Shown: positions 33,313 to 50,804 of the stretch, one piece after another
Numbering within the stretch: the first letter of the stretch is position 1
Layout of the letters: each line of letters opens with the position of its first letter
Source of the DNA: Planctomycetota bacterium
Lineage (GTDB): Bacteria; Planctomycetota; B15-G4; SIAN01
Assembly: GCA_031409275.1 (NCBI GenBank)
Contig: JANNXA010000018.1
Coordinates: forward strand, 59,339 to 123,338
DNA length: 64,000 bases
Direction of reading: 5' to 3'
Made by a program: the position numbers and the translations under genes
Notes under the pieces: model-generated
Database searches by the model: none
What the model was told of the DNA's origin: nothing
The model's input: the letters and a program-made list of their open reading frames with translations, nothing else

Positions 33313-36300
33313 TCAGCGCGGCGTGGTCGCGGAAACCGCATTGGTCATCGAGAAGCCGCGCGCGGCACCCGGATCGAGGACGAGCGCCTGCAGGAAGAAG
33401 CTCTCGCCGCCGGGAAGGTCGTCACCGAGGCACTCGGAGTAGCTCATGGCGCCGTTCGCATCAGTGGACGCTCCCGACAGCACGACGTCGGGTGCGGGAA
33501 CGAGCACGCCGCCCGCGAACGGCAGGCACGTCGGCGTCAGTCCGATGACGAGCCAGATCGGGGCATTCGCCAGGGCACCATCGACGTCGGCCGTCACCAG
33601 CGACAGCGGTCGCAGATCGCCTCCCATGGTCAGCCGCGGCGTGCCTTGGGTCCCGGTCAGCGCGTGGCCGAGGTCGGCGAACGCGCCGGTCGGTTCGCTG
33701 CGGAAGCGAACCGTGCAGTAGAGCCGCGTCGGGTCGACGCTCGCGGCGCTGATCGCGGCGCCGTCGCACGGAGACGCGTCCTGGAACGAAAGGCCGCCCG
33801 TCGTGAGGAATGGCCCATCGAGGAGCGGGCCGGTGATGGTCGTGGCGCGCAGCGCCTGCACGCGCACCGCAAGTCGGTAGAGCCGGCCCGGCTCGAGTGT
33901 GGCATCGAGAGCGTAGTAGTTGCGATCGTTGCGCGGTCGGATCGCGAAGTTGCGCATTCCTCCAGCGGCCAGCATCGGATTCAGCGGATCGGTGACATCC
34001 CACACGAACGTGTTGCCGAGCAACCCGCCGCAGTCGACGCCGCTCGCGAGCTTGCCGTCGACGACCAGCTCCTCGATGCGTTGCGCCGAGGTCGCGCCGC
34101 GCGTGTCGATCTCCATGCCGATGAACCAATCGCCGGCGGGCGCCGCGATCGGCGCCGGGATCGCGGTGGTGAGGCCTGCCATCACCAGGCCGCCGTTCAC
34201 CGTCGTGAGCGGTTCGAGCGACGCGCCCGGAATGAAGTCGCAGCCGTCGATTCGCACCCGTCCGCTGCGGTAGATGACGATCTCCCGCTCCTGCAATTGC
34301 GCGAGGTCGAGGTCGCCGAGCACGGGGTTGACGTGGCGATCGACGCGGACCGTCATCTGGGCCGCGTTGCCCTTGAAGTCGACGATGACGCGGAAGTGGA
34401 CGTCCTGGTTCGGATCGGGATCGGGGTCGGTGGGCAACGCGAAGTGGAGCGTGTACTCGTTCTGGTTCAGGTAGCCACCCGACGTCGACACGACTTTCGT
34501 GCGACGGTTGACGTCGGTGGGGTGGTCGAGCGGGACGATCGTCACCTGAGCGCCGAACTCCGTCTCGAGACCGTCGTCGAAGAGGTCGGAGTCGCGCACC
34601 GGCTTCACGCGGAGATGGCGCTTCAGCTCGGGCGCGGTCGTCGCGTCGTAGGTCGTGTTGTCGTAGAGGTGACCAGTGGAGGCCCAGTTGCCGATCGCCG
34701 CGTCGACGTCGCCGTCGCGGTCGAAGTCGCCCCACGCCGGAGTCGCTTCGCTGATGTGGGTGGGATCGATCGAATGGGTGGCGATCGTGAAGTGGCGCCC
34801 CCCGTCGCTCTCGATGAACTGATTGCGCCGGAAGATCTCGCTGCTCGATACGTCGACGTCGCCGTCGTTGTCCCAATCCTCGAACGAGAGGCCGAGCGGC
34901 AAGCCGATGAAGGCGCCGTCGAAGAGCCCTCGCGACTGGACCTTGAAGTTCCCATCGCCACGGTTCTCGTACATGCGCAGGCCGACGCTGCTGTTGACAT
35001 GGAACAGGCACAGGTCGATGTCGCCATCCATGTCGTAATCGAAGAGGCCGGCACCCTCCTCCGCGTCGAGCCCGAACGACATGCCGCTTGCCGTCGGGTC
35101 GAGCAGCTCGAACGACGGCGTGCCCGCGCTCGAGACGTTGCGGTAGATCGCCACGCACGCGTAGAGGTCGAGGTCGCCGTCGAAGTCGAAGTCGGCGAAG
35201 CCGGCGCCTTCGGGCAGCTGCCCGATCGGAGGGTTCTCGAGCCCGGCTTCGGTCACCATCTCGTGGAAGGCGTAGACGCCGTTGGCGTCCGGGCCGAGGT
35301 TGTAGAGGAAGCGGTTGCCGATGCTGCCGCCGTTGATGCCGTAGATCGGGAAGAACCAATCGAGATTGCCGTCGCCGTCGACGTCGGCAACCGAGTTGGT
35401 CTCGCACATCGCGGTGCACATCGGGTCATCGACGATGGCGGGGTCGAGGGCGACGTCCTCGAAATCATCGTTGCCGAGCGAATGGAGCACGTGGACGCAG
35501 TCGCCACGCGGCTCGTTCGCGATGTCGGGTCGTTGGTCGTTGTCGTAGTCGGCGACCGCACAGCCGTAGGGGACGAAGAAGTCGTTCAGCCACGGGCTGA
35601 GGTCGACCTGTTCCACCCAGTCGACGCCGGCCAGATTGCGCCAGATCTTCTTGCCACTCGAATTCACCACATCGATCCAGCCATCGTGGTCGTAGTCGCC
35701 GAAGCTGATGCCGTTGGTGTTCCCGAAATCGAGCCCGCCTGGAAATGTGGCATTGGTCCAGAGGCGCAGCGGCAGGTCGTCGCTGGCCGGGCCGAGTTTC
35801 GAGCCGCTCGACCGTTGAGTCGGCATCAACACCAGCGAGCGTCCTTGCGACGCACCTGGCGAGAGCTCGTGCAGCTCCCACGCGAAGCGCATCACGTCCG
35901 CCGGGATCGGCGCGAGCCGCTCCGCGAGGGTTGGCGGGAACGTCGCGCCGTCGATGGAGTCACGGCGCCATTCGCGGGTGTAGACGACGTCGCGCAACGG
36001 CGCGCGTCCGGTGTTGCGGAGCGTCGCCGTGATGATGAGCGCGCCGGTGAACGGGCAGAACGAGAAGCGGTGCTCGATCTCGAGCGCGACGCCGATGCCG
36101 GCCGTGACCGAGCCGAGGGTGAGCGCGCGGTCGGGCGCGAAGAGGCTCGAACCGGAGCTCACCGGCAGGCGGTTGGCGTAGTCGGCGACCGCGCCCGCCC
36201 CGACCGCGCTCACCTCGGCGCCGAGTGCGTCGAAGGTGACGCCGAACCACTCCACCGTCCCTGGCACGAAGAGCGCTCGCGGCCCGAAGGTGGACACGAG

Positions 36301-36453
36301 ACCGGCGGCGGGAGGCGCCACCATGACGCCGATCGGATCGAGGCGGACGGTCGTGGTGCCGTCGCTGATCGATTGCGCGCCGGCATCGGCGAAGCCGACG
36401 AGGAGCGCGGCGACGGTGGCGGAGCCGCTTCGAGACGGAACGCGTGATCGCAT
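33313..36453 (-). CDS. Secreted FG-GAP/VCBS-repeat beta-propeller protein, paralogue 2
   Basis: Collinear with 30081-33200 over the full length; same repeats and C-terminal ...NAVSxTTPR. Confidence 0.9.
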   Translation of the reverse strand: MRSRVPSRSGSATVAALLVGFADAGAQSISDGTTTVRLDPIGVMVAPPAAGLVSTFGPRALFVPGTVEWFGVTFDALGAEVSAVGAGAVADYANRLPVSSGSSLFAPDRALTLGSVTAGIGVALEIEHRFSFCPFTGALIITATLRNTGRAPLRDVVYTREWRRDSIDGATFPPTLAERLAPIPADVMRFAWELHELSPGASQGRSLVLMPTQRSSGSKLGPASDDLPLRLWTNATFPGGLDFGNTNGISFGDYDHDGWIDVVNSSGKKIWRNLAGVDWVEQVDLSPWLNDFFVPYGCAVADYDNDQRPDIANEPRGDCVHVLHSLGNDDFEDVALDPAIVDDPMCTAMCETNSVADVDGDGNLDWFFPIYGINGGSIGNRFLYNLGPDANGVYAFHEMVTEAGLENPPIGQLPEGAGFADFDFDGDLDLYACVAIYRNVSSAGTPSFELLDPTASGMSFGLDAEEGAGLFDYDMDGDIDLCLFHVNSSVGLRMYENRGDGNFKVQSRGLFDGAFIGLPLGLSFEDWDNDGDVDVSSSEIFRRNQFIESDGGRHFTIATHSIDPTHISEATPAWGDFDRDGDVDAAIGNWASTGHLYDNTTYDATTAPELKRHLRVKPVRDSDLFDDGLETEFGAQVTIVPLDHPTDVNRRTKVVSTSGGYLNQNEYTLHFALPTDPDPDPNQDVHFRVIVDFKGNAAQMTVRVDRHVNPVLGDLDLAQLQEREIVIYRSGRVRIDGCDFIPGASLEPLTTVNGGLVMAGLTTAIPAPIAAPAGDWFIGMEIDTRGATSAQRIEELVVDGKLASGVDCGGLLGNTFVWDVTDPLNPMLAAGGMRNFAIRPRNDRNYYALDATLEPGRLYRLAVRVQALRATTITGPLLDGPFLTTGGLSFQDASPCDGAAISAASVDPTRLYCTVRFRSEPTGAFADLGHALTGTQGTPRLTMGGDLRPLSLVTADVDGALANAPIWLVIGLTPTCLPFAGGVLVPAPDVVLSGASTDANGAMSYSECLGDDLPGGESFFLQALVLDPGAARGFSMTNAVSATTPR

Positions 36454-37183: not shown

Positions 37184-38758
37184 ATGAAGAAGGAAGCTCG
37201 GCCGTGGCATCGATCCGTCCCGTTCGGGACGGCGGTTGCCCTGGCATCGCTCGGGTCGCCGCTCTTCGCGCAGTTCGGGCCGCCTCGCCCGCCCACCGTC
37301 ATCCGCGGAGGGACGGTGCATCTGGGCAACGGTGACGTCCTCGCCAATGGGACGGTCATCCTGCGCGGTCGCGAGATCGAAGCCGTGGGCGTCGATCTCC
37401 CGGTTCCCGAAGGGGCGGAGGTCATCGAGGCGGCGGGCAAGCACGTCTACCCCGGCTTGATCGACGTCGAGTCGACGCTGCTGCTGGACGCCGACACGCT
37501 CGAGTCGGGCGAGGGCAGCGTGAGCGGCCGCGTGGCCGATGCGCTCGACCTCTTCGATCCCGATCCGTTCGTCCAGGCGTGGAGCGGTGGCGTCACCACC
37601 ATCGGCGTCGCCTCGCGACGCGGCCTCTTCGATGGCCCGCGCGCCGTCGTGACGATGAAGCGCTCGCGAGCCGGCGACTCGCTGCTGCGCGAGGAAGGCG
37701 ATCTCGCCATCACGTTCGGTCGCAACATCGGTCGGCCGTCGATGCGTCTTCGCGAATGGAAGACCTTCTCCGAGCAGCTTGCGGCCACGCAGAAGTACAT
37801 CGAGTCGTGGGACGAGTACGCCGAGAAGCTCGAGGAGTACAAGAAGGAGATCGAGAAGTCGGCGAAGGAGGGGACCAAGCTCCCCGCCGAGAAGAAAGAG
37901 GAAGCCGCGCCGAAGCCGGAGGCGCCGGGCGGTTCAGGGCCCGGAGCCGGTGAAGGCGGCGGGCGCCGCGGGCCCGGCGGAGAAGGCCGACGACCGCGGC
38001 CGGGCCGCGCGCACGCGCACGACACGCCCTTCCTCAACTGGCTGCGGGACACCCTCGGCTGGATGTGCGACTGCGGTCTGCCGACTCATGAGGGCGGCCA
38101 CGCCGACCACGACCTCCATGCGCTGCTCCTCTCCGACGGCGTCTCCTACGCGGAGGAGCCGGCGAAGCCCGAGGGCGGCGACGCGAAGAAGGAAGAGCCC
38201 AAGAAGCCGGCCCGTCCCAATCGCGAGGAATCGCGCGAAGTGCTGCGGAAGGTGCTCGAAGGCAAGATCGGCGTGAACGTCTACTTCGGCGCCGCGGCCG
38301 ATCTGCAGAACCTGCTCGATCTCCTTGCGACCTATCCGCTGAAGGTGGTCGTGACCGGTGGCGGCGAATCGGCCGAACTCGCCGACGAACTCGCCGCGCG
38401 CCAGATCCCGACCGTGGTCGTGCAGCCGCACGACTTGAACAGCGCCACGCTCGGGGCGGCCGCGAAGCTCGAAGCTGCCGGCGTCGACGTCGTGTTGACG
38501 ACCGCCGGCGCGACGCCGGGTGCGACTCGTCACCTGTCGCTGAGCGCGGCGGCCGCGATCGCCGGTGGTCTGACGCCGGAGCAGGCGCTGGCCGCCATCA
38601 CCTCGCGCGCGGCAGCGCTGCTCGGCGTCGGCGACAAGGTCGGAACCCTCAAGGCGGGCATGCACGGCGACGTCGTCATCACGCGCGGCGAGCTGTTCTC
38701 GTCGACCGCGGTCATTGAACGGGTCTTCGTCGAGGGGGCGAGCGTACTGCAGCGTTGA
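37184..38758 (+). CDS. Exported amidohydrolase-fold protein 1 (degenerate metal motif; His/Cys-rich insert)
   Basis: IRGGTVHLG, GKHVYPGLIDVEST, GGVTT, ALAAITSRAAALLG..GTLKAGMHGD. Confidence 0.88.
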   Translation: MKKEARPWHRSVPFGTAVALASLGSPLFAQFGPPRPPTVIRGGTVHLGNGDVLANGTVILRGREIEAVGVDLPVPEGAEVIEAAGKHVYPGLIDVESTLLLDADTLESGEGSVSGRVADALDLFDPDPFVQAWSGGVTTIGVASRRGLFDGPRAVVTMKRSRAGDSLLREEGDLAITFGRNIGRPSMRLREWKTFSEQLAATQKYIESWDEYAEKLEEYKKEIEKSAKEGTKLPAEKKEEAAPKPEAPGGSGPGAGEGGGRRGPGGEGRRPRPGRAHAHDTPFLNWLRDTLGWMCDCGLPTHEGGHADHDLHALLLSDGVSYAEEPAKPEGGDAKKEEPKKPARPNREESREVLRKVLEGKIGVNVYFGAAADLQNLLDLLATYPLKVVVTGGGESAELADELAARQIPTVVVQPHDLNSATLGAAAKLEAAGVDVVLTTAGATPGATRHLSLSAAAAIAGGLTPEQALAAITSRAAALLGVGDKVGTLKAGMHGDVVITRGELFSSTAVIERVFVEGASVLQR

Positions 38759-38802
38759 GCGCCGCGGTCCGACCTCCCACGCCAGGAGCACCGAAGAGAA
38801 CC

Positions 38803-39897
38803 ATGCTCGCGATTCCCCTCATTGCCGCGCTTTCGATCGCTTCGGGCCCTCCCGCGTCGGCGCCGCCGCGGCAGCCGGCTCCAGTCGCCATCCGTGTCGA
38901 CGGCGTCGTCCAGACCGACGGCGCGATCGGGCCCGGCGGCTGGATCATCGTTCGCAACGGCCGCATCGAATCGATCGGAACGGCCGCGCCGCCGCCGGGA
39001 GCTGCGACCTTCGAGTTCGTCGGCGGCATCGCGTGCGCCGGCATGGTCGATGTGGCGACGCAGCTCGGCGCGCCCGGCCAGTTCAGCGAACCGTCGCGCG
39101 CCTTCACTCCTGACGTTGCCGCGGCAGACGCCTTCGAGCCCGACCACTCGAGCTTCCTTGCGGCCGCGCGCTCCGGCGTGACGACGGTGGCGCTCACGCC
39201 TGGCAGCGACAACATCGTCGGCGGGAGGCTCGCGCTCATCCGCACGCGCGACGACCACGATCGCGCTGCGCAGTTCGTCGGTCCCGGTCCGTTGCGCTTC
39301 ACGTGGAGCGATGCGGCGTTCCCCGAGGATCGACTGCCCTCGTCGCGAATGGGCGCGATGGCGCGACTGCGCGAGCTGCTGGCGAACGACACCGCCAAGA
39401 CTGCCGGCGCCAGCCTCGTGTCGGCGCAGACTTCCGACCAGATCCGAACGGCGCTCGACGCGTTCACTGCGTCGAATCGCCCGTTGGCGCTGCTGCAGCC
39501 GTTCCATGCCGAGGAGGCGCTCGCGCTGTTGCCGGGCCGTGCGCAAGGCGTGGTGGTCGGCCCCTTCAACCTCGATACGGCGGAACGCGAGACGCGGCTA
39601 CCGAAGCAGCTGGCCGATCTTGCGGTGGCGGTCGCGTTCACCGCGAACGGCGACGGCGCCGCGCTGCGCCTGACCGCTGCGATCGCCGTGCGATCCGGAC
39701 TCGACCCGAAGTCGGCGCGGCTCGGCTTGACCTCGGTGCCGGCGCGTCTGCTCGGCATCGATGGCGACGCCGGCACGCTCGAACCGGGCAAGCGCGCTGA
39801 CCTCGTCATCTACGGCGGTGATCCGCTCGACCTTGCCGTCTCGATCCAGATGGTCCTCGTCGGCGGCGGTGCAGTCGCCAAGAAGGAGACGCCATGA
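38803..39897 (+). CDS. Exported amidohydrolase-fold protein 2 (degenerate)
   Basis: Signal peptide; AGMVDVATQ, SGVTT, PARLLG..GTLEPGKRADLV. Confidence 0.88.
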   Translation: MLAIPLIAALSIASGPPASAPPRQPAPVAIRVDGVVQTDGAIGPGGWIIVRNGRIESIGTAAPPPGAATFEFVGGIACAGMVDVATQLGAPGQFSEPSRAFTPDVAAADAFEPDHSSFLAAARSGVTTVALTPGSDNIVGGRLALIRTRDDHDRAAQFVGPGPLRFTWSDAAFPEDRLPSSRMGAMARLRELLANDTAKTAGASLVSAQTSDQIRTALDAFTASNRPLALLQPFHAEEALALLPGRAQGVVVGPFNLDTAERETRLPKQLADLAVAVAFTANGDGAALRLTAAIAVRSGLDPKSARLGLTSVPARLLGIDGDAGTLEPGKRADLVIYGGDPLDLAVSIQMVLVGGGAVAKKETP

Positions 39898-41168
39898 TTC
39901 CGGCGCTCTGCGCCCTCGTGCTGGCGGCCGCGGATGCGGCGCCGGCAGCCTCCGCGCCGCAACGACTGCGCGGCGACGTGATCGTGCTGCAAGCGGCCGA
40001 AGTGCATGTCGGCGACGGCACCGTCTTCAAGCCGGGTCTCGTGATCGTCCAGGACGGCAAGCTCGTCGCGGCGGGCCAGTCGATGCCGCTGCCAGCCGGC
40101 GCCAACGTGATCGACTGCGGCAGCGCGACGATCACGCCGGGGCTCGTCGATGCCGCCTGCCAGCTCGGCACGTCTGCGCTCTTCGGCGCGGCCGAGCAAG
40201 GCTCCGAGGTCATCCCGCAGCTCGACATGTGGGACGCGCTCGACCTCTATTCGCGCGACTTCGAGCAGCTCGTCGCCGATGGCGTGACGACCGTCTTCGT
40301 GACGGGCGAAGCGTCGTCGGTGATCTCCGCGAAGGGCGCCGCGCTCAAGACCGGCGGGCCGATTGCGGATCGTCGCCTTCCTGCCAAGCCCATCGTGAAA
40401 CTGACGCTCGGTCCCGAAAGCTCGGGGCGCGGCGCCAGCAACCGAGGACCGAGCCGCTTCGGCGGAGTTTCCTATTCGACGCGCCGCCCGACCACTCGCA
40501 TGGGCTCGGCCTGGGTCTTCCGCAAGGCGATGCACGATTCGATCGCGTTCCGCGACGCGGGCCGCGCCAGCAACGAGGATCTCGAGCCCGATGCGATGCG
40601 AGCGCTCGCCGACGTGCTCGCCGGAAAGACGGCGTTGCGAGTGCAGGCGCGCGAAGCGCTCGACTTCTTCACCGCGGTGAAGCTGGCCGACGAGTTCGGC
40701 CTCTCGTTCAGCTACGAGTACGCCACCGAAGCGGCGCAATGCCTCGACCTCCTCGCCGCGCGCAAGATCCCGGTGATCTTCGGTCCGGTGCGGAGCAGCG
40801 ACTCGATCTTCGAGGGTTTCGAGGGGGCGATGCCGGCGCTCGAGACGCCGCGACTGCTGGCGGCGAAGGGGATCCACTTCTGCCTCACCGCATCGGATGG
40901 CAGCGGCGAAGGCGGGCTCGGTCGTCAGGCCGGTCTCGCCATCCGTTTCGGTCTCGACCGCGCGCAGGCGCTGCGATCGGTCACCTCCGATCCGGCACAG
41001 ATGGTGGGGCTCGACGGCCGCGTCGGTCGTCTCGTTCCCGGACTCGATGCTGACCTCGTCGTCTGGAACGGCGCGCCGTTCGACGACACCGCGAAACCCG
41101 TGCTCGTGCTGATCCAAGGCCGGCCCGTCCTCGACCTGCAAGGCAAGTTCCGCAAGGAGAACTCGTGA
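39894..41168 (+). CDS. Exported amidohydrolase-fold protein 3 (degenerate)
   Basis: Signal peptide; TPGLVDAACQ, GVTT, PTTRMG, PAQMVG..GRLVPGLDADLV. Confidence 0.88.
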   Translation: MIPALCALVLAAADAAPAASAPQRLRGDVIVLQAAEVHVGDGTVFKPGLVIVQDGKLVAAGQSMPLPAGANVIDCGSATITPGLVDAACQLGTSALFGAAEQGSEVIPQLDMWDALDLYSRDFEQLVADGVTTVFVTGEASSVISAKGAALKTGGPIADRRLPAKPIVKLTLGPESSGRGASNRGPSRFGGVSYSTRRPTTRMGSAWVFRKAMHDSIAFRDAGRASNEDLEPDAMRALADVLAGKTALRVQAREALDFFTAVKLADEFGLSFSYEYATEAAQCLDLLAARKIPVIFGPVRSSDSIFEGFEGAMPALETPRLLAAKGIHFCLTASDGSGEGGLGRQAGLAIRFGLDRAQALRSVTSDPAQMVGLDGRVGRLVPGLDADLVVWNGAPFDDTAKPVLVLIQGRPVLDLQGKFRKENS

Positions 41169-42496
41169 TGGTCCTCTCGTCGCTTCTGGTCGCCGGACTC
41201 CTCGCGGCGGCCTCGTCGATCGGTGACGCGGCCGCGGTGCGCGGCGGAACGATCGTGAACCCGGACGGGTCGCGCGTCGAGAAGGGCGTGGTCGTCATCC
41301 AGGGCGGCAAGATCACGGCGGTGGGTGGACCGGAGACGCCGATCCCCGCCGACGCCACCGTCTACGAAGCGGACGGCAAGGTGGTCTTCCCGGGGATGAT
41401 CCTCGCCCACACGCAAGTCGGGCTCGACATCCCCAACGAGAACATGCCGGTCGCCCCGTTCGTGAACGTCTACGACTCGATCGAGCCGAACTCGGCCGAG
41501 TACGAAGAGTGCCTCCGCACTGGCATCACGACGGTGCACGCGATCCAGGGCAACAACACCGTGATCGGCGGCCTCTCGCGCGTGATCCGGCCGCTCGGCG
41601 ACATGGTCGAGTACATGACCGTGCGCCCCGACTACGCCATGAAGATCTCCATCACGCCGCGCAGTGGCTTCAACCGGATGACGCAGATGGCGGAGCTCCG
41701 CCGCGCGTTCGCCGACCTGAAGGCGCACGTCGAGGCGGTCGCCGAGCGTCGCTACGAGGAAGAGCAGAAGAAGAAAGAGGAGAAGGTCCTCGTGGTCCCC
41801 GACGAGGCGGTGAAGCTCGGCATGGAGAAGGTGACGATCGACGACCTCGATGCGCGCTGGCGGACGCTGTGGCGGGCCAGCAAGGGCGAGGTGCCGCTCT
41901 TCGTCCACTGCGACCGTGCGATGGATGTCGCGAACGGCATCGCGTGGTTGCGCGAAGCGAAGCTGCTGGAGAAGGCGGTCTTCGTGGTCGGCACCGAGGC
42001 CTACAAGTCGGTCGGTGCGCTGAAGCAGGCCGGGCGTCCGGTGATCCTCTCGGGCACGCTCGTCCACAAGGACGTCGACCTCCTCACCGGCAAGGAGACG
42101 GAGATCTTCGTCCCGAAGGTCTTCGCGGACGCGGGGGTCCACTTCGTGCTGCAGCCCAACGGCTTCGCCTTCAACGCCGACGGGCTGCTCTGGTACCAGG
42201 CGGCGCGCTGCGTGCGTGAGGGCATCGCTCGCGATGTGGCCTTCAATGCCGTGACGCAATGGGCGGCGGAGGCCATCGGCATGGGCGACACGCTCGGTTC
42301 GATCAGCACCGGCAAGTGGGGCAACGTCGTCATCTTCTCGGGCGATCCGCTCGATCAGGCGACCGTCGTCGAGAAGCTGCTGCTCGAAGGTCGCCTCGCC
42401 TACGACCGCTCCACCGATCGCCGGTTGAAGGAACTATCGACGGGTCAGGATCTGGCCGCTCCGTCGGCAGTGCCCGCCGCGACCGCAGGCAAGTGA
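41165..42496 (+). CDS. Exported amidohydrolase-fold protein 4 (partial motif)
   Basis: Signal peptide; FPGMILAHTQ, GITT, VHC, AAEAIG..GSISTGKWGN. Confidence 0.88.
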   Translation: MMVLSSLLVAGLLAAASSIGDAAAVRGGTIVNPDGSRVEKGVVVIQGGKITAVGGPETPIPADATVYEADGKVVFPGMILAHTQVGLDIPNENMPVAPFVNVYDSIEPNSAEYEECLRTGITTVHAIQGNNTVIGGLSRVIRPLGDMVEYMTVRPDYAMKISITPRSGFNRMTQMAELRRAFADLKAHVEAVAERRYEEEQKKKEEKVLVVPDEAVKLGMEKVTIDDLDARWRTLWRASKGEVPLFVHCDRAMDVANGIAWLREAKLLEKAVFVVGTEAYKSVGALKQAGRPVILSGTLVHKDVDLLTGKETEIFVPKVFADAGVHFVLQPNGFAFNADGLLWYQAARCVREGIARDVAFNAVTQWAAEAIGMGDTLGSISTGKWGNVVIFSGDPLDQATVVEKLLLEGRLAYDRSTDRRLKELSTGQDLAAPSAVPAATAGK

Positions 42497-42529
42497 CGCG
42501 CGTTCGCGTGCCGCAAGGAGAGTCCTGAC

Positions 42530-45500
42530 ATGGTGCATCGCACCGCTCCCATCCTGGCTGCCACCGCTGCGCTCCTTGGCGCCGCGCTGTTGCCCACGTC
42601 GACGCGCGCGGCGCAACCGCTGCGCGTCGGTGATCCGCCGGCCAAGCTCTTCGTCAAGGCGGGACGGCTGTGGACCGGCGCGCCGGAAGGCGCGCAGGTC
42701 CCGACCTACCTCTCGCCCGGCGCGATGCTGATCGTCGATGGCAAGATCGTCGAGGTCGCCGCCACGCTCGAAGCGCCAGCCGACGCAGTCGTCGTCGATC
42801 TCGGCGACGCTTCGGTGATGCCGGGTCTCGTCGATGCCAGCACGAGCCTCGCCGGCACTTCCGAGTTCCTCGCGAACTCGGTCTGGAAGGATGAGGCGGT
42901 CGCGGCGCAGTTCGACCCAGCCGACTCGTTCGACACCTTCGCCGACTGGCGACCGGCGCTGCTCGGCGGCGTGACGACGGTCTACCTTTCCTGCGGTGAA
43001 CGCCGCCTCGTCAGCGGACAGGGCGCCGTCGCCAAGCTCTCTTCGCGCGGCGGCGGTTCGACGATCCTCGTCCGCCAGTCGGCGCTCGAGATCAACCTCG
43101 GCCCGAGCAGCCTCAACCCGCCACCGAAGATCGATCCACCGGTCCCCGCGGCGGCCGATCAGCCGATTCGACCGGCGCAACGCCAGCTGCCCACCACCCG
43201 AGTGGGGCAGCTGATGGGCGTACGCGAAGCCTTCGCTCTCGCGCGTGGCACGATCGAAGCGGGCGACCTCTCGACGCTCGCGCTGGCGGCCGCCGTGCAG
43301 GCACGCCGTCCGTTGCGCATCAGCGCGGACGAGGCGTCCGATCTGCTGCGGGCCACGCAACTCGCGCGTGAGCTCGGCCACCCGGCGGTGATCGTCGGCG
43401 GCGCCGAGGCCTCGCTGGTCGCGGATCAACTCGCCGCCGCGCGCTATCCGGTGGTGGTCGAGATCGGCCTGTCGCTCGAACGTCCACCCGCCGAGCGTGG
43501 AGCGCTGGACGTCGACGCGCCGCGCCTGCGGCCGGAGTCGGCTGCGGAACTCGTCCGGCGCGGGGTGAAGGTCGCGCTGGCGACGCCGCCCGGCTCCTCT
43601 CCCGCCGATCTGCTGCTGGCCGGCGCGATCGCCGTGCGCGGCGGTCTCACCACGGAGCAGGCGGTCGCGGCACTGACGCGAGTGCCCGCCGAGATCCTCG
43701 GCGTCGGCCATCGCCTCGGCTGCCTCATGCCGGGGAAGGACGCCGACTTCATCGCGCTGTCCGGCGAGCCGTTCCTGCGCAGCTCTTACGTGCAGAAGGT
43801 CTTCGTCGAGGGACGCCTGGCGGCGGAGCCGACTCCGGTCGCGCGCTCGAGTGCGACGGGAACGAGTGGCGGAACGGTCGTGATTCGCGGTGGCACGCTG
43901 ATGAGCGGTGTCGGAGAGCCGATCCGCGGTGGCGCGGTCGCGATTCGCAATGGCCGCATCGTGGCGGTGGGCGCCGACGTTGCCGTGCCGCAAGGGGCGC
44001 GCATTATCGACGTCGGACCCGGCACCGTGATCACGCCGGGATTCCTCGACGCGAACTCGCATCTGGAGTACGGCGAGGATCGCACCAACCTGAGCCTCGA
44101 CTTCGATCTGGTGCAGGCGGTGGCCGGAGCCGACGCGGCGGCGCTCGAAGTCGCGCGCCACGGCGTGACGACCGCGCTGGTGCAGACGTGGCAGGCGAAC
44201 CAGGGCGGATCGCGCATCGTCGCGTTGAAGACGGCGGGCACGACGCGCGCGGCGCGTCTGGTCGATGCGCTGGCGGGCGTCAAGATGTTCTGGCGCGGGC
44301 CGTTCGATCCGTTGCTCACCGCGGAGCGCTACCGCGGCCAGCTCGGCGAGGCGAAGCGCTACGCCGAGGCGTGGACGAAGTACGCCGAGGAGCTCGCCAA
44401 GTGGAACGAGGAACAGAAGAAGAAGAGCGCGGAGCAGGCTGCCGCCGACCTTGCGAAGGCCGCTGAACCGAAGAAAGAGGAAGCGCCGGCGGAGGTCGCC
44501 AAGGAGAAGAAGGCCGATCCGCTGACCGGCAAGTGGTCGGTGACTGTTTCGGGCGGCCCGATGCCGGAACCGATGAACGGCACCATGAGCCTGAAGCTCG
44601 ACGGCGAGAAGGTCACGGGCACCTTCGCCGCGCTGTTCGGCGACGAGGAAGATCCGCGCAACGTGTCGGGCACGCTGTCGGGGAAGACGCTCTCGCTCGA
44701 GATCGACGTCGAGATCCCGATCGGCAAGCCGCGTCTCGAGACGGAGCTCGACGCCGACGACCACATGGCCGGCAAGCTGAAGCTCGGCGATCGCTTCGCC
44801 TTCGACTTCAGCGCGACGCGCACCGACAAGACCTTCGTCGAAGTGGTGACGGTCGCCAAGGGCAAGAAGAAGAGCGCGGACGGCAAGCCGACGGCGCCCG
44901 ACCTGAAGCCCGAGCTCGAGCCGTTCCGCCGCGTCTTCGCCGGCGAGATTCCGATCGTGCTGGAGTGCGATTCGGCGGTGGGGATCAAGCAGGCGCTGAA
45001 GGTCTTCGCCGAGTTCAAGGTCGAGGTCGTCCTGCTCGGTGCCGACGAGCTGCACCGCCTTCCGCTCGCCGAGTGGAAGGGAGTGGTGAAAGGGATCATC
45101 GTCCCGGAGGCGATCGAGGTGCCGCGGACGGTGGCGATGACGCCCGGCGCGGCGCCCGTCGAGAGTGACGGTCCGCGACGTCGTCCGCCGCAAGGCGACG
45201 CACCCGCGGTCGGACGCCCCGTCGAGAGCAGCGCGTCGCGCGAGCGCTTCGTCCCGGCGGCGGAGTACTCGGCGCTCGGCGTGCCGGTCGCCTTCCAGAG
45301 CAACGGCATCACGACCGCGCGCGGCTTGAGCCTCAACGCCGCGTACGCGGTGCGGCTCGGGATGGACCCGCGCGCCGCGTTGCGCGCGCTGACCATCGAG
45401 CCGGCGCGCATGTTCCACATCGACGACCAGGTTGGCTCGCTCGAGCCGGGCAAGCAGGGCGACGTCCTGGTCTTCTCGGGTGACCCTTTCGAGTTCTCGT

Positions 45501-45559
45501 CGCGCCTGCTGAAGGTCTTCGTCTCGGGCGAAGAGATCGCGCTGGAGCTGAAGCCATGA
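42530..45559 (+). CDS. Exported double-domain amidohydrolase-fold protein 5
   Basis: Two complete repeats (PGLVDASTS...GKDAD; PGFLDANSH...GKQGD) with a beta-rich insert in the second. Confidence 0.9.
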   Translation: MVHRTAPILAATAALLGAALLPTSTRAAQPLRVGDPPAKLFVKAGRLWTGAPEGAQVPTYLSPGAMLIVDGKIVEVAATLEAPADAVVVDLGDASVMPGLVDASTSLAGTSEFLANSVWKDEAVAAQFDPADSFDTFADWRPALLGGVTTVYLSCGERRLVSGQGAVAKLSSRGGGSTILVRQSALEINLGPSSLNPPPKIDPPVPAAADQPIRPAQRQLPTTRVGQLMGVREAFALARGTIEAGDLSTLALAAAVQARRPLRISADEASDLLRATQLARELGHPAVIVGGAEASLVADQLAAARYPVVVEIGLSLERPPAERGALDVDAPRLRPESAAELVRRGVKVALATPPGSSPADLLLAGAIAVRGGLTTEQAVAALTRVPAEILGVGHRLGCLMPGKDADFIALSGEPFLRSSYVQKVFVEGRLAAEPTPVARSSATGTSGGTVVIRGGTLMSGVGEPIRGGAVAIRNGRIVAVGADVAVPQGARIIDVGPGTVITPGFLDANSHLEYGEDRTNLSLDFDLVQAVAGADAAALEVARHGVTTALVQTWQANQGGSRIVALKTAGTTRAARLVDALAGVKMFWRGPFDPLLTAERYRGQLGEAKRYAEAWTKYAEELAKWNEEQKKKSAEQAAADLAKAAEPKKEEAPAEVAKEKKADPLTGKWSVTVSGGPMPEPMNGTMSLKLDGEKVTGTFAALFGDEEDPRNVSGTLSGKTLSLEIDVEIPIGKPRLETELDADDHMAGKLKLGDRFAFDFSATRTDKTFVEVVTVAKGKKKSADGKPTAPDLKPELEPFRRVFAGEIPIVLECDSAVGIKQALKVFAEFKVEVVLLGADELHRLPLAEWKGVVKGIIVPEAIEVPRTVAMTPGAAPVESDGPRRRPPQGDAPAVGRPVESSASRERFVPAAEYSALGVPVAFQSNGITTARGLSLNAAYAVRLGMDPRAALRALTIEPARMFHIDDQVGSLEPGKQGDVLVFSGDPFEFSSRLLKVFVSGEEIALELKP

Positions 45560-46833
45560 GCCTCGGATCTCCCCTTCTGTTGGCCCTCCTCTCACCGCTG
45601 CTGGCCGCAGGCGGAGAAGCGACGCTGGTGGCCCCAGCTGCCGCGCCACGTGCGCCGGAACCGGCGCCACGGCTCGCGATCGTCGTGACGAAGGCGTGCA
45701 CCGTCTCCGAGAGCGATGCGATCGTCGACAACGCCGTGATCCTGGTGAAGGACGGCCGCATCGAGAAGATCGGCCGCCAGTCGGAAGTCGCCATTCCCGA
45801 GGGCTACCAGCTCATCGACGGCAAGGGGATGTGGGCGGTGCCCGGCTTCGTCGACTGCCACGACCACGTCGGCGGCGGGCTCTCCGACCTGAACGACGGC
45901 GTGTACCTCAGCAACCCCGGCCTCAATTCGCTGCACACGATCGATCCCGAGAACGACAACGTGAAGAACGCGTTGGCGGGCGGCGTGACGACGGTGCTGG
46001 TGATCCCTGGCTCCGGCAACAACATGTCGGGCTTCGGCACCGTCATCAAGACGTGGGGCCACACGATCGACGACGTCGTGGTGCGCTCGCCGGGCTCGCT
46101 CAAGATCGCCCAGTCGGGCAACCCCGAGCGCTACTGGTACGGCATCGGCCGCTCGTTCATGAACTTCAACACGCGCGACACGCTCCTGCGCGCCAAGAAG
46201 TACCACTCGGCGTGGAAGGCCTTCGAAGAGGGCAGCGGCGCGAAGCCGGACTACAGCCCCTACTTCCACGAGTTCCGCGGGCTGATCGACAAGAAGTTCC
46301 CCGTCACGGTCCACACGCAGATCTATCAGGTCGTCGCTGAGACGATCCAGATGCTGCACGACGAACTCGGGCTCTGGGCCGTGCTCGACCACTCGGAGTT
46401 CGATGCCTGCGAGCTCGGCGCCGAGACCAGCAAGCGCGACATGTTCGTCATCGTCGGGCCGCGCGCGATCCACTACGACCGGCGCGATCGCGAGATCGTC
46501 GGACTGTGCGCCGAATGGCTGCGCACCGGCAACGGCAAGCAGAAGCTCGGCGTGAACACCGACGCGCCAGTGCAGCCGCAGGAAGACCTTTCGATGCAGG
46601 CGACCTATGCGGTGCGCTTCGGCCTGCCGCGCGAGCGCGGCCTGTCGGCGCTGACGCGCGTGCCGGCGCAGGCGCTCGGCATCTTCGACCGCCTCGGCTC
46701 GCTCGAGGCGGGCAAGGATGCGGACCTCGGCCTGTGGACCGGCGATCCGATCGATCCGGCCAGCTCTTGCCTGTTGACCATCGTGAACGGCCGCATCGCG
46801 TACGACTCGAAGACCATGGGCCGGCGCTATTGA
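45556..46833 (+). CDS. Exported metal-dependent amidohydrolase 6 (intact ligands)
   Basis: PGFVDCHDH, SLKIA, VHTQ, LDHS, NTDAP, GSLEAGKDAD. Confidence 0.92.
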   Translation: MSLGSPLLLALLSPLLAAGGEATLVAPAAAPRAPEPAPRLAIVVTKACTVSESDAIVDNAVILVKDGRIEKIGRQSEVAIPEGYQLIDGKGMWAVPGFVDCHDHVGGGLSDLNDGVYLSNPGLNSLHTIDPENDNVKNALAGGVTTVLVIPGSGNNMSGFGTVIKTWGHTIDDVVVRSPGSLKIAQSGNPERYWYGIGRSFMNFNTRDTLLRAKKYHSAWKAFEEGSGAKPDYSPYFHEFRGLIDKKFPVTVHTQIYQVVAETIQMLHDELGLWAVLDHSEFDACELGAETSKRDMFVIVGPRAIHYDRRDREIVGLCAEWLRTGNGKQKLGVNTDAPVQPQEDLSMQATYAVRFGLPRERGLSALTRVPAQALGIFDRLGSLEAGKDADLGLWTGDPIDPASSCLLTIVNGRIAYDSKTMGRRY

Positions 46834-46852
46834 GCCGCGGCGAGGAACGTCC

Positions 46853-48283
46853 ATGCGCACCCTGACTCGAAAGCTCTCCGTCGTCCTGCTGCTTGCGCTG
46901 GCCACGGGCCGGCTGCCCGCAGCGGCTGCCGACGCCGGCGATCGCTACGTCGCGATCCGTTGCGGAAAACTCATCACCGGCACCGGCGAGGAGAAGAGCA
47001 ACGTCACGCTCCTCGTGAAGAACGGCAAGGTCGAGCTCATCGGGGAGAAGGTCGAGCTGCCCTATCCGTGCGAGGTGATCGACGCCAGCAACATGGTCGT
47101 GATGCCGGGCCACGTTCACGCGCACAGCCGCCTCTCGCTGCTCGACTACCAGCGGCAGGGAATGCGAGCGGACGTGAAGGTGGCCGACGAGTTCCTGCCG
47201 GGACCGGGCGCGTTCGATGCCGCGCTGGCGGCGGGCTTCACGACGCTGCAGTTGGTGGCCCCCGGTGCGATCGGCATCCCCGGTCGTTGCATGGTGGTGC
47301 GCACTGCCGACGTCGGCGATGGCTTCGTGATCGACGATGACGGCGCCATCAAGACGAACCTGGTCAACCCGGCTCAGGACCGCCGCATCCTCACCGAGGC
47401 GCTGAACGGCGCCAAGCGCGAGATCGAGAAAGCCGAGAAGGCGCGCGCCGAGTTCGACGCCAAGAAGGAGGCCGCCGAGGAGCAGAAGAAGAAGGAAGAG
47501 GAGGCGAAGAAGCAGCAGGCGCAGGCACCGGCCGGTGGCGCGCCTGCGACCCCGCCCAACGCTCCTCCCAATGCGCCGCCGTCGGGCCCCAAGGCGGGCG
47601 ATCCGCCGAAGCCGGACGAGAAGAAGCCGGAAGAGAAGAAGGAAGAGGTCTTCCAGCCGCCGCCGATCGCGCCGCAGTTGCAGCCGTTCGTCGACCTGGT
47701 GCAGAAGAAGGCGGGCACCTCGCTCTTCGTCAAGCTCGGCGGTGCCACCACCTACCTGCATTGGCTCGAGGCGACCAAGGAGTTCGAGGTCGCGCACGTC
47801 CTCTACCCGGAGGTGTCGCGCGCCTTCAACTGGCCGCAGGCGTTCTCCGGAGTGCCGGGCACCGACCTTCACTGGGTCGCCAAGCAGTTCGGCGAGCACC
47901 ATGAACTGGTCGTCCTGGCGCCTTGGATCTCCTACATCCAGGGCAGCATCGACCTCGTCAACGTGCCGGCGAAGTTCGCCGAGGCGGGGGCGCGGGTCGC
48001 GCTGACGCCGTCGTCGGACGCCGCCGAGGCGTTGGCGGGCTATCGCTTCCAGGTCGCTGAGCTGGTGAAGCAGGGGCTGAAGCGCGCCGACGCGATCGCC
48101 GCGATGACGAAGAATGCGGCGGAGGCGGTCGGTGCAGGAGCAGAACTCGGCACGCTCGAGCCGGGCAAGCGCGCGAACCTCATCGTGCTGAGCGCGGACC
48201 CGTTCGATGCGCAGGCCGCGCTCGACCGCGTGCTGATCGACGGTCGCGTGGCGTGGACTCGCACGCGCAAGAGCCGGAGCTGA
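46853..48283 (+). CDS. Exported amidohydrolase-fold protein 7
   Basis: Signal peptide; MPGHVHAHSR, GFTT, AAEAVG..GTLEPGKRAN. Confidence 0.88.
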   Translation: MRTLTRKLSVVLLLALATGRLPAAAADAGDRYVAIRCGKLITGTGEEKSNVTLLVKNGKVELIGEKVELPYPCEVIDASNMVVMPGHVHAHSRLSLLDYQRQGMRADVKVADEFLPGPGAFDAALAAGFTTLQLVAPGAIGIPGRCMVVRTADVGDGFVIDDDGAIKTNLVNPAQDRRILTEALNGAKREIEKAEKARAEFDAKKEAAEEQKKKEEEAKKQQAQAPAGGAPATPPNAPPNAPPSGPKAGDPPKPDEKKPEEKKEEVFQPPPIAPQLQPFVDLVQKKAGTSLFVKLGGATTYLHWLEATKEFEVAHVLYPEVSRAFNWPQAFSGVPGTDLHWVAKQFGEHHELVVLAPWISYIQGSIDLVNVPAKFAEAGARVALTPSSDAAEALAGYRFQVAELVKQGLKRADAIAAMTKNAAEAVGAGAELGTLEPGKRANLIVLSADPFDAQAALDRVLIDGRVAWTRTRKSRS

Positions 48284-48288
48284 ACCCC

Positions 48289-49734
48289 ATGCGATCCCCG
48301 CTGAGAATGCTGATCGCGCTGTGCGCCGCCGCAACACTGGCGTTGCCGGCGCCGGCTCAGGGCGCGTTCCTCGACGACGCCCCGAAGAAGCCGGACGGCA
48401 GCGCGAAGCCCGACGACAAGAAGCCTCCGGAGGCCAAGCCGGAGGAGAAGAAAGACGAGAAGAAGAAGGACGAGAAGAAGAAGGACGAGAAGAAGGACCG
48501 CTGGCTGGCGATCCTGAACGGCGACGTCCACACGATCTCCGATGGCGTGCTGCGCGGCGCGACGCTGCTGTGCAAGAACGACAAGATCCACGCGATCGGC
48601 TACGGCATCGAGGTGCCCAAGGAAGCGGCGACGATCGATGCTGCCGGGCTGCACCTCTATCCGGGATTGATCGCGGTCAACTCGTCGCAGGTCATCGGGA
48701 GCGAGCCGCTCGAGTTCACCACCGACGTCTTCTCCTACAACATGACGTTCGCGCTCGCCTGCGGATGGACGACGCTCGTCTCGGGCAACAGCGCCGGCAA
48801 GCTCACCTACGGCACGCTCGATGGGCTGCTCCTGCGCGCCAACCTGCTGATGCGCATGAGCTACATGAGCGGTGACGAGCGCCGTCGCATGCGCGAGGAC
48901 CTCGAGACTGCGCGCGAGTACCTGCGCAAGCGCAAGCTCTTCGAGCAGCAGAAGGCGACCAACCCGGCGGCCGAGGAGCCGAAGCCGGAGGGCGTGAACC
49001 AGGAATACTTGAAGCTGATCGGCGGCGATGTGATCGCTCGGTTCGACGCCGCCACCGCCGAAGACCTGCGCGCGATCGCCAAGCTCGCGACGGAGTACGG
49101 CTTCAAGGCGGTGATCTTCGGCGCCACCGAAGGGTGGATCGTCGCCGAGGAACTCGGTCGCGCCGGCATCTCCTGCGTCATCACGCCGAACACGCCGCGC
49201 GTCGAGCGCGATGCGCGCCTCAATCGCGCCAATGGCGCCACGATCGAGAACGCGGCGCTGCTCTGGAAGGGCGGCGTCAAGGTCGCGGTGATTCCCGGCA
49301 GCGCGCGACTTGGCAACGACGGCCTCGTCGATCGCGACCTGCGCACGCCGACGCTCGAAGCGGCGCTGGCGGTGCGAGGCGGTCTGCCGCGCGATGCCGC
49401 CGAGGCGGCGCTCACCATCAACGCGGCGCGCGTGCTGGGCATCGACGATCGCGTCGGTTCGCTCGAAGTCGGCAAGGACGCCGACATCATCCTCGTCGAC
49501 GGTGAACTGCTCGACTACCAGAGCTTCGTCTACTACTCGATCGTGAACGGCCGCCTCGCCTACGACAAGGCGAAGGAGTCGCTCTTCCGCGATCTCCGTC
49601 CTCGCCCCTCCACCTACCAGGAGCCCAAGCCGCCGGAGCCTCCGAAGGAGGAGCCGAAGCCGGAGGAGGCGAAGAAGGAGGAGCCGAAGCCGGAGGAGAA
49701 GAAGGAAGAGGGGGCGAAGCCGGAAGAGAAGTAA
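48289..49734 (+). CDS. Exported amidohydrolase-fold protein 8 (degenerate; K/E/P-rich tails)
   Basis: Signal peptide; YPGLIAVNSS, GWTT, AARVLG..GSLEVGKDAD. Confidence 0.88.
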   Translation: MRSPLRMLIALCAAATLALPAPAQGAFLDDAPKKPDGSAKPDDKKPPEAKPEEKKDEKKKDEKKKDEKKDRWLAILNGDVHTISDGVLRGATLLCKNDKIHAIGYGIEVPKEAATIDAAGLHLYPGLIAVNSSQVIGSEPLEFTTDVFSYNMTFALACGWTTLVSGNSAGKLTYGTLDGLLLRANLLMRMSYMSGDERRRMREDLETAREYLRKRKLFEQQKATNPAAEEPKPEGVNQEYLKLIGGDVIARFDAATAEDLRAIAKLATEYGFKAVIFGATEGWIVAEELGRAGISCVITPNTPRVERDARLNRANGATIENAALLWKGGVKVAVIPGSARLGNDGLVDRDLRTPTLEAALAVRGGLPRDAAEAALTINAARVLGIDDRVGSLEVGKDADIILVDGELLDYQSFVYYSIVNGRLAYDKAKESLFRDLRPRPSTYQEPKPPEPPKEEPKPEEAKKEEPKPEEKKEEGAKPEEK

Positions 49735-49866: not shown

Positions 49867-50158
49867 GCGGTGGTGAGGCGCGCGGCTGCGAGGACGCAGC
49901 GCGCGGCGAGAGCGGGGCGGTGGTGGGGCGCGCGGCTGCGAGGACGCAGCGCGCGGCGAGAGCGGGGCAGTGGTGAGGCGCGCGGCTGCGAGGACGCAGC
50001 GCGCGGCGAGAGCGGGGCGGTGGTGAGGCGCGCGGCTGCGAGGACGCAGCGCGCGGCGAAAGCGGGGCGGTGGTGGGGCGCGCGGCTGCGAGGACGCAGC
50101 GCGCGGCGAAAGCGGGGCGGTGGTGAGGCGCGCGGCTGCGAGGACGCAGCGCGCGGCG
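49867..50158. repeat. Intergenic 50-bp tandem repeat, about 5.8 copies, each with an internal hairpin
   Basis: Unit TGGTGRGGCGCGCGGCTGCGAGGACGCAGCGCGCGGCGARAGCGGGGCRG starting at 49871, 49921, 49971, 50021, 50071, 50121. Confidence 0.95.
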
Positions 50159-50266: not shown

Positions 50267-50752
50267 ATGAAGCGCGGGACGACGACGCAGCAGGCGATCG
50301 GGCAGACACGGCCGTTCCGGTCGCGTGGGCAAGAGGCGATGGTGGCGCTGCTCCTCGCAGCCGAGGCGCTGAAGGGGCGTCTCGCGGGCGTCCTTGCGCA
50401 GCGCGAAGAGATCACGCTCCAGCAGTACAACGTGCTGCGGATCCTGCGAGGCGCCGGTCCCGATGGATTGCCGACGCTCGACATCGTCGAACGGATGATC
50501 GAGAAGACGCCCGGGATCACCCGCCTGATCGATCGCCTCAAATCAAAGCAGTTCGTCGCGCGCTACCGGCTCGAGCGCGATCGTCGCCAGGTCTGGTGCC
50601 GACTCACGCCGGCGGGGGCGACGCTCCTCGCCGACCTCGATGGGCCGATCGATGCCTTCGACGGCGCGGCGCTCGACTGCCTGTCGGCGCGCGAGCTGGT
50701 GAGCTTCATCGAACTGCTCGATCGCGTCCGCAACCATCAACCGGAGGCGTAG
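50267..50752 (+). CDS. MarR-family transcriptional regulator
   Basis: ITLQQYNVLRILRGA, RMIEKTPGITRLIDRL, DRRQV..LT..G. Confidence 0.93.
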   Translation: MKRGTTTQQAIGQTRPFRSRGQEAMVALLLAAEALKGRLAGVLAQREEITLQQYNVLRILRGAGPDGLPTLDIVERMIEKTPGITRLIDRLKSKQFVARYRLERDRRQVWCRLTPAGATLLADLDGPIDAFDGAALDCLSARELVSFIELLDRVRNHQPEA

Positions 50753-50804
50753 TCGGCGACGACCGCAACGCACTCTTCCTCGCTCCTCTTCCAAGGACAC
50801 AAAG

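Follow-up and report, generated by a model that had tools for sequence, protein, structure and literature searches.

What could eight consecutive, apparently exported members of one hydrolase family do together, if only one of them looks catalytic? The question is raised by an array of genes at positions 37184-49734 of the window, that is, the whole 64,000-nucleotide (nt) stretch of DNA analysed here from a Planctomycetota bacterium (assembly GCA_031409275.1, contig JANNXA010000018.1, positions 59,339 to 123,338 of the forward strand). The array comprises eight open reading frames (ORFs) on the plus strand, all of amidohydrolase type and holding nine modules in total that resemble the protein of PDB entry 3OOQ. 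Its initial annotation described the genes as tightly packed, highly diverged yet intact and free of any transporter or pathway gene, and proposed a periplasmic hetero-oligomer with one active and many pseudoenzyme subunits. The description was borne out: the intergenic gaps from gene 1 to gene 8 are −4, −4, −4, 33, −4, 19 and 5 nt (taking the TTG at 38755 as start of gene 2 and the ATG at 48289 as start of gene 8), the modules share 23-30% pairwise identity with their frames intact, and no transporter or pathway gene lies within the array. The proposal is supported, at the level of sequence, by slot-specific lineages, conserved order and a predicted pairing of the products of genes 6 and 7. 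We consider it probable that the array encodes one periplasmic hetero-oligomeric amide hydrolase, built as a pseudoenzyme scaffold with swappable active subunits, a reading that infers the complex and its export as well as its activity and substrate.

One complete metal site among nine modules

All eight proteins matched the Pfam families Amidohydro_1/3 (PF01979/PF07969), that of gene 5 twice, and seven of the eight passed the gathering cut-off; gene 4 fell slightly below it (28.3 versus 29.7 bits, E 1.6e-6) and does match the nine-module profile and the slot profiles. The best match in both sequence and fold is 3OOQ, an uncharacterised amidohydrolase from Thermotoga maritima MSB8 whose structure was released in 2010 and which shares the HxH/K/H/H/D ligands. 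Gene 6 matched it with E 1.1e-41 and the nine-module profile with E 2.9e-78 (next entry 3.5e-26). The AlphaFold2 model of gene 6 (predicted local distance difference test, pLDDT, 93.8; predicted template modelling score, pTM, 0.93) superimposes on 3OOQ with Z 45.8 and a root-mean-square deviation of 2.5 Å over 366 aligned residues at 28% identity, the next entry reaching Z 25.6. The barrel plus beta-sandwich fold was checked on single-chain models of genes 5 and 6, that of gene 5 (pLDDT 87.6, pTM 0.69) giving a Foldseek TM of 0.80 to 3OOQ. Searches against named NCBIfam families (HutI, Xaa-Pro dipeptidase, PhnM, dihydroorotase, hydantoinase and others) gave scores far under the curated cut-offs throughout, the best for gene 6 being 66 bits for NF051886, with a cut-off of 500. 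The array proteins thus belong to the amidohydrolase superfamily and, within it, to a functionally uncharacterised 3OOQ-like subfamily, probably the one labelled cd01309 in CDD. Whereas 3OOQ is one sequence repeated, the array consists of nine paralogous modules, eight of them degenerate, with signal-like leaders and slot-specific insertions; since the function of 3OOQ is not known, it offers no hint of a substrate.

The ligands of gene 6 (H102, H104, K183, H253, H279 and D336) stand in register in the alignment with 3OOQ, and in the slot alignments all six occur in 141 of 141 gene-6-type rows versus none of the 823 rows of the other eight slots. The claim that gene 6 alone has both His of the PG.xDxHxH motif plus the later Lys, His, His and Asp was confirmed. 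The motif itself had been read, in order, as DVEST, DVATQ, DAACQ, LAHTQ, DASTS, DANSH, DCHDH, HAHSR and AVNSS; all nine strings are exact, except that gene 2 has AG, not PG, ahead of the motif. Profile-profile mapping left the other eight modules of the window with zero to three of the six ligands (Table 1), the last three positions being mapped uncertainly in loops (posterior 0.2-0.9). No slot is better conserved than that of gene 6: across a common set of 69 rows its mean identity is 48%, while the dead slots lie at 30-42%. The distance matrices of the slots correlate with that of gene 6 (r 0.78-0.87). On these sequence comparisons, the dead slots are under selection.

The signal-like N-termini reported for every gene held up as well: all eight resemble Sec signal peptides by eye, and most orthologues pass a hydrophobicity test that is lenient and was run without a negative control (62/71 for gene 1, 68/70 for gene 2, 87/91 for gene 3, 78/86 for gene 4, 75/82 for gene 5, 126/129 for gene 6, 86/93 for gene 7 and 99/104 for gene 8, or 87-98% per slot). 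In one lone intact relative (L179) the protein begins directly at the first strand. The leaders make it likely that the array products are Sec-exported to the periplasm.

The degenerate modules might instead act singly, as periplasmic ligand-binding proteins or as non-canonical (mononuclear or metal-free) enzymes of one co-regulated pathway in which gene 6 would be the sole classic hydrolase. Near-invariant, slot-specific polar residues do surround the pockets of gene 3 (E101/E105/K169) and gene 4 (H82/N91/E92/K160), H82 and K160 being kept in 61 and 64 of 68 gene 4 orthologues, respectively. Partial sites recur in other slots: HxH plus Lys plus His/Asp in 4 of 95 gene 2 rows, all distant orthologues, with five ligands in 3 of the 95 and a possibly near-complete set in row L178 in a second alignment, and HxH in 20 of 111 rows of 5C, the C-terminal module of gene 5. 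The collapsin response mediator proteins (CRMPs) also provide a precedent for metal-less amidohydrolase-fold proteins with functions of their own (PMC7325199). The initial annotation had named degenerate members that have alternative metal sites and act alone as evidence that would speak against its proposal; partial sites exist in some gene 2 and 5C rows, and alternative sites are therefore possible. Single gains and losses would be expected of modules working alone, yet the gene-6 slot is the only one that varies; genes 1 and 8 and 5N, the N-terminal module of gene 5, hold zero to two ligands in every row, and the flanks of the array show no conserved gene for a transporter, a receptor or a downstream enzyme. 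Independent action thus appears rather unlikely to us.

Slot lineages, order and the variable gene-6 position

When GTDB genomes were searched with gene 6, 78 loci were obtained, of which 74 matched strongly (41-89% identity). Their record titles are mostly Planctomycetota (Phycisphaerae, Pirellulales or unclassified), others reading only 'bacterium'; single records titled Acidobacteriota, Gemmatimonadota and Bacillota may be mis-binned. Over 100 loci share the arrangement, which is therefore not a chance one. In a first set, formed by the scan loci plus nine array regions from relatives, modules were labelled by their position relative to gene 6, so that order is given by construction; every locus of sufficient length shows the identical module run, and for 616 of 642 modules the best BLAST match among those of the window was the one expected from position. 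A second set comprised 40 regions sampled evenly across the phylum. Half of them (20) were selected largely because they had several gene-6 matches, which biases copy-number frequencies upward, and the other 20 for long contigs; the modules of this set were labelled by slot profiles built on the first set. Dropped before counting were the duplicate loci L119, L120, L122 and L159, the weak matches L115-L118, L043 and L081 (no full gene 6), modules under 300-340 amino acids (aa), and G089 and G196, whose gene 4 and gene 8 matches are lone intact relatives; duplicate genomes may persist in the counts.

Each position proved to form its own orthologue lineage. On a FastTree phylogeny of 182 rows, the 15 groups were accounted for by 15 label changes (14 being the minimum and 138.6 the mean after shuffling), and apart from two long-branch rows of one locus each slot occupies one side of a branch. 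Gene order was kept in all 39 independently labelled loci of the second set (one duplicate removed), 31 of which are complete and two of which, being lone gene-6 copies, are trivial. Random variation of copy number and order among relatives, which would have told against the initial proposal, was found in neither respect for the dead modules; the gene-6 slot alone varies. Recent tandem amplification or decay is ruled out by the divergence between modules, their intact frames and the slot-specific lineages.

Among 301 Planctomycetota genomes, orthologues of genes 6, 4 and 8 were detected in 84, 84 and 82, respectively (two lone intact relatives removed). All three occur in 79 genomes, none in 215 and a partial set in seven, and in at least six of these seven the array is cut by a contig end (G080 is the remaining one). 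The operon is present in 7/7 and 5/5 genomes of families f1 and f5, and at orthologue level in 0/12 and 0/15 of f2 and f4, within the same order. Two genomes depart from the standard layout: in G182 the operon is split into blocks of genes 1-5 and 6-8 with all modules retained, and in G076 gene 8 is located elsewhere. In a complete chromosome titled Gemmatimonadota (L067, G325) the array consists of genes 4-8, with no genes 1-3 in the ~6 kb searched upstream. One genome (G126; L154 and L186) carries two complete divergent operon copies; its contamination is 5%, and a binning artefact is possible.

In the 31 complete second-set arrays the eight dead modules are single-copy (one being a frameshifted 5C), and the gene-6 slot holds one copy in 17 arrays, two in 11, three in two and four in one, all of them intact enzymes by their ligands and 34-69% identical to each other in tandem. 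The 'one active subunit' of the initial annotation is thus lineage-specific: it stands for this genome, and relatives hold one to four intact enzymes at this position. The live genes present two motif types, Q (H253-T-Q) and A (H253-T/S/C-A), and in 17 of 20 multi-copy arrays one or more Q-types are followed by one A-type. In a 38-row IQ-TREE phylogeny the Q clade stands apart from the A-types with a Shimodaira-Hasegawa-like approximate likelihood ratio (SH-aLRT) of 95, and both types occur in at least five lineages. The ancestral operon, on these motifs and this tree, probably had ten modules, two live (Q-type, then A-type) and eight dead, and we infer that the A-type was lost in the lineage of this window. 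As an alternative, repeated transfer instead of an ancestral pair with loss could explain the distribution of the two types.

A further reading of the array takes the dead modules mainly as a structural polymer or envelope lattice, with gene 6 as a minor remodelling or processing subunit. The long predicted helices, the charged and Pro-rich tails and the all-beta insertion distributed over genes 1, 7 and 8 and module 5C would suit such a role. Eight distinct single-copy paralogues would nevertheless fit a closed particle better, the expansion and divergence of the live slot point to selection on catalysis, and whole families (f2 and f4) lack the operon; we regard a lattice as highly improbable.

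Lone intact gene-6-type genes were also found far from the operon in two operon-bearing genomes (L151 in G261, L153 in G128) and are candidates for alternative subunits supplied in trans. Smaller versions of the subfamily exist as lone intact genes, live plus dead pairs and dead-live-dead triples, with seven pairs and four triples among the regions retrieved. The pairs (L129, L131, L133 and L135-L138) consist of two genes, one live and one dead, each partner forming its own clade, and are common in relatives without the nine-module operon. The genome of the window itself has a triple (L134, G000:C22:128485-133205), made of a degenerate gene followed by a fused live and dead gene, and in L128 and L130 the triple is one three-domain protein. 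Versions with 1, 2, 3, 9 and 10-12 modules are all extant and constitute a natural series. In such a series one can test directly by what route a homo-oligomer became a machine of many subunits, and whether the added subunits brought new function or merely became obligatory.

Predicted contact and the proposed assembly

Modules 5N and 5C are fused in all 107 loci having both. Clean in-frame fusions lacking an internal leader join genes 1 and 2 (L154, L168), genes 1, 2 and 3 (L163) and genes 7 and 8 (L156). No genuine fusion with gene 6 appeared among the loci examined, which fits an exchangeable gene-6 subunit. Two apparent fusions were rejected: that of genes 4 and 5 in L093 spans an N gap, and that of genes 5 and 6 in L157 lies in a frameshifted frame, with gene 6 retaining its own leader.

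The multimer modelling suggested by the initial annotation gave a predicted complex of genes 6 and 7 with a score of 0.63, against 0.00 for the best of three controls, an agreement between runs of at least 86% of contacts and a partner pLDDT of at least 84. Of 157 solved complexes 116 score at least as high, as do 2 of 215 mismatched pairs, counts that apply only approximately to our own alignments. The predicted interface involves residues 340-359 and 399-404 of gene 6 and 399-414 and 451-454 of gene 7, namely the GDP loop and the helix that follows the final barrel strand. The pair passes its controls, while hetero- and homo-pairing are left unseparated.

Several observations weigh against a single large assembly, beginning with the conserved pocket residues and partial sites already mentioned. 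The predicted interface pairs equivalent elements in both chains, so that the passing score may merely reproduce the two-fold contact of the family as it is known from 3OOQ; unrelated proteins, not paralogues, served as controls, and the score is silent on hetero- versus homo-pairing. Coevolution analysis, underpowered and confounded by phylogeny (effective number of sequences 54), gave p 0.64 for genes 6 and 7 and ranked genes 3 and 4 first. The pTM of the fused gene 5 model means that the packing of its two modules is not fixed. Entry 3OOQ has ten chains, matching the inferred ten-module ancestral count, although ten chains per PDB entry need not equal the biological assembly. The A-type group of live genes is weakly supported (SH-aLRT 40). 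Co-occurrence and order also fit an ordinary co-regulated operon, and as kin genomes are not independent we claim no statistic for co-occurrence.

Instead of one particle, the products might form a number of small complexes, namely live-dead or dead-dead heterodimers or heterotrimers resembling the two- and three-module relatives or the metformin hydrolase MfmAB discussed below. Pairs and triples are common in the subfamily, with a triple in this very genome, and the sole contact predicted so far is one dimer interface of pseudo-two-fold type. It is hard to see, though, what dead-dead dimers would do in an array that has one live gene; the fusions chain genes 1, 2 and 3 as well as 5N and 5C, and all eight dead slots are retained together, and on this evidence separate small complexes seem distinctly unlikely.

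We therefore retain the single hetero-oligomer as the favoured reading. Each chain would be exported unfolded via Sec and assemble in the periplasm into a single 3OOQ-like particle, which, by homology, would descend from a 3OOQ-like homo-oligomer via duplication and site loss. In amidohydrolase chemistry a carbamylated Lys bridges two metals and a bridging hydroxide attacks the carbonyl. Because this chemistry is established for the superfamily, gene 6 would be expected to load two metals at H102, H104, carbamylated K183, H253, H279 and D336, and the bridging hydroxide to attack the carbonyl of the substrate, hydrolysing an amide bond. The gene-6 position would be a socket for interchangeable enzymes, and in this genome the Q-type gene 6 would fill both live places. 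Long helices, the all-beta insertion of 5C and Cys/His patches could be accessories that capture substrate, anchor the particle or handle metal. As fixed scaffold and gate, the eight degenerate modules would shape access to the site and stabilise gene 6, the latter by analogy with the stabilisation of MfmA by MfmB (PMC10927577). Neutral entrenchment of subunits could explain the origin of such a particle and is compatible with its having this function.

Complexes of many paralogues, mostly inactive, are textbook features of eukaryotic and archaeal cells: in the 20S proteasome and immunoproteasome and in the RNA exosome core, a homo-oligomer has diversified into paralogues, most of them dead, with exchangeable active subunits. 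A bolder version of our reading, possible although we hold it doubtful, is a proteasome-like periplasmic cage of about ten modules, with eight different pseudoenzymes and two catalytic sockets filled from one to four (plus unlinked) interchangeable enzymes that retune cleavage, the Cys/His patches holding or delivering metal. The likeness to proteasome and exosome is one of analogy only, those systems having unrelated folds, a cytosolic or nuclear location and a mostly eukaryotic and archaeal distribution.

Closer parallels exist at smaller scale. In MfmAB an active metal-binding subunit and a paralogue devoid of metal ligands are encoded by adjacent genes and co-purify, the dead subunit serving as scaffold, and CgdAB is cited alongside as similar (PMC10927577). 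The array resembles MfmAB in having adjacent, co-inherited paralogues of which one has the catalytic residues and the others lack them. MfmAB differs in its ureohydrolase fold, its two paralogues (a 2:1 heterotrimer) and the nickel-delivery and transporter genes of its operon, whereas the array has the amidohydrolase fold, eight dead paralogues and no conserved accessory genes, and its complex is a predicted one. In the AibH1H2 heterodimer the catalytic AibH2 is a structural homologue of the amidohydrolase-derived PtmU3 and AibH1 is structural (PMC12141560); this enzyme is an Mn/Fe hydroxylase that has two subunits and works with redox partners, unlike the likely exported array of nine modules. 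CRMP1-5, also called dihydropyrimidinase-like, are amidohydrolase-fold pseudoenzymes that have lost the zinc-binding His and prefer hetero-oligomers (PMC7325199). They are distant PDB matches to the array, belong to another subfamily and form eukaryotic cytosolic tetramers, for which the pages seen describe no live dihydropyrimidinase subunit.

Our literature search, which covered listings and the openings of abstracts, found no description of the nine-module operon; subscription papers and supplements, which may bear on the 3OOQ family, were outside its scope. The array is real, conserved and undescribed in the searched literature, and is of the enzyme-pseudoenzyme kind at unusual scale. While the bacterial complexes MfmAB and AibH1H2 comprise two paralogues each (PMC10927577, PMC12141560), what sets the array apart from these and from the CRMPs is its eight distinct dead paralogues, likely export and variable live slot. 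If true, such an exported assembly, its dead modules fixed at eight and its live slot variable, would represent a sizeable and so far unexplored part of the cell biology of the phylum, given its occurrence in 84 of the 301 Planctomycetota genomes sampled.

Individual genes, surroundings and substrate

The genes of the array and the neighbouring features are listed in Table 1. Gene 1 bears a long charged insertion and a His/Cys-rich patch at about residues 275-312 (38006-38119). Patches of this type, defined as at least six His plus Cys per 30 residues with at least two of each, are present in dead subunits of 34 of 83 complete arrays: in gene 1 here and in L110, in gene 3 in 40 of 99 rows, where they occupy two distinct places, and in gene 8 of L124 and L172. 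They look like repeated independent gains and may serve metal binding or delivery. Module 5C is predicted to contain a helix of 49 residues as well as an all-beta insertion (about residues 667-766, nt 44528-44827); the insertion gave no Pfam or PDB sequence match, and its Atlas matches, at most 0.79, are at chance level.

Table 1. Array genes and nearby features of the window; ligands of the degenerate modules are those retained by profile-profile mapping
Feature	Positions	Strand	Length	Description
Gene 1	37184..38758	+	524 aa	Degenerate amidohydrolase module; 0/6 ligands; signal-like N-terminus
Gene 2	38755..39897	+	380 aa from TTG	Degenerate; 0/6 ligands; alternative ATG start at 38803
Gene 3	39894..41168	+	424 aa	Degenerate; K169 and D335 retained; conserved E101/E105; Gln replaces first late His
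Gene 4	41165..42496	+	443 aa	Degenerate yet well conserved; H82, K160 and H248 retained; near-invariant N91-E92
Gene 5	42530..45559	+	1009 aa	Two fused degenerate modules: 5N (~42530-43846), no ligand retained; 5C (~43847-45559), H72 and K146 retained
Gene 6	45556..46833	+	425 aa	Sole module with full binuclear ligand set; Q-type motif (K-I-A-Q-S-G-N-P, H253-T-Q); predicted catalytic subunit
Gene 7	46853..48283	+	476 aa	Degenerate; H91, K167 and D389 retained; long charged/Pro-rich insertion
Gene 8	48289..49734	+	481 aa	Degenerate; 0/5 mappable ligands; Lys/Glu/Pro-rich tails at both termini
Tandem similar proteins	30081-33200 and 33313-36453	-	~1040 aa each	FG-GAP-like repeats
Tandem repeat	49867-50158			50-bp unit, 5.8 copies, 97% identity
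MarR and DoxX genes	50267-51320	+		MarR-family regulator and DoxX membrane protein
ORF	53758-55227	-		Presumably pyruvate kinase-like

The initial annotation had envisaged a polymeric or envelope substrate, and we found no evidence favouring one over a small amide or peptide. Within the single-hydrolase reading, our tentative choice of substrate class, held at somewhat short of an even prospect, is small peptides or N-acyl amino acids that reach the periplasm, because the nearest characterised relatives (~20% identity) are peptide and N-acyl amide hydrolases and because the live slot diversifies as expected of a scavenging enzyme. Those relatives, dipeptidases and carboxypeptidases of the superfamily such as Cc2672 (3MTW), the Xaa-Pro dipeptidases and the ochratoxinases, are the next-best matches after 3OOQ (3MTW: E 8.3e-13, Z 25.4), and several of their entries have eight identical chains; at such identity, and as single-gene enzymes, they give a hint of the chemistry only.

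No flanking gene is conserved across lineages, the largest flank cluster covering 22 loci, nearly all of a single lineage, and the 130 ORFs adjoining array ends gave scattered housekeeping matches, some of these ORFs being probably non-coding frames. Searches for a sigma-70 promoter or a plus-strand terminator found none, and Rfam returned a single match, far under the gathering score. The minus-strand ORF at 53758-55227 reads as pyruvate kinase-like by eye, from its motifs; it gave no Pfam match, the query coordinates being probably out of register. Just upstream of the operon, the two tandem proteins with FG-GAP-like repeats show a weak ASPIC/UnbV match. On the other side, the MarR and DoxX genes follow after a 530-nt gap and are not conserved by arrays elsewhere. 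The 50-bp tandem repeat lies between gene 8 and the MarR gene, and sequences related to it occur on at least eight other contigs of the same genome.

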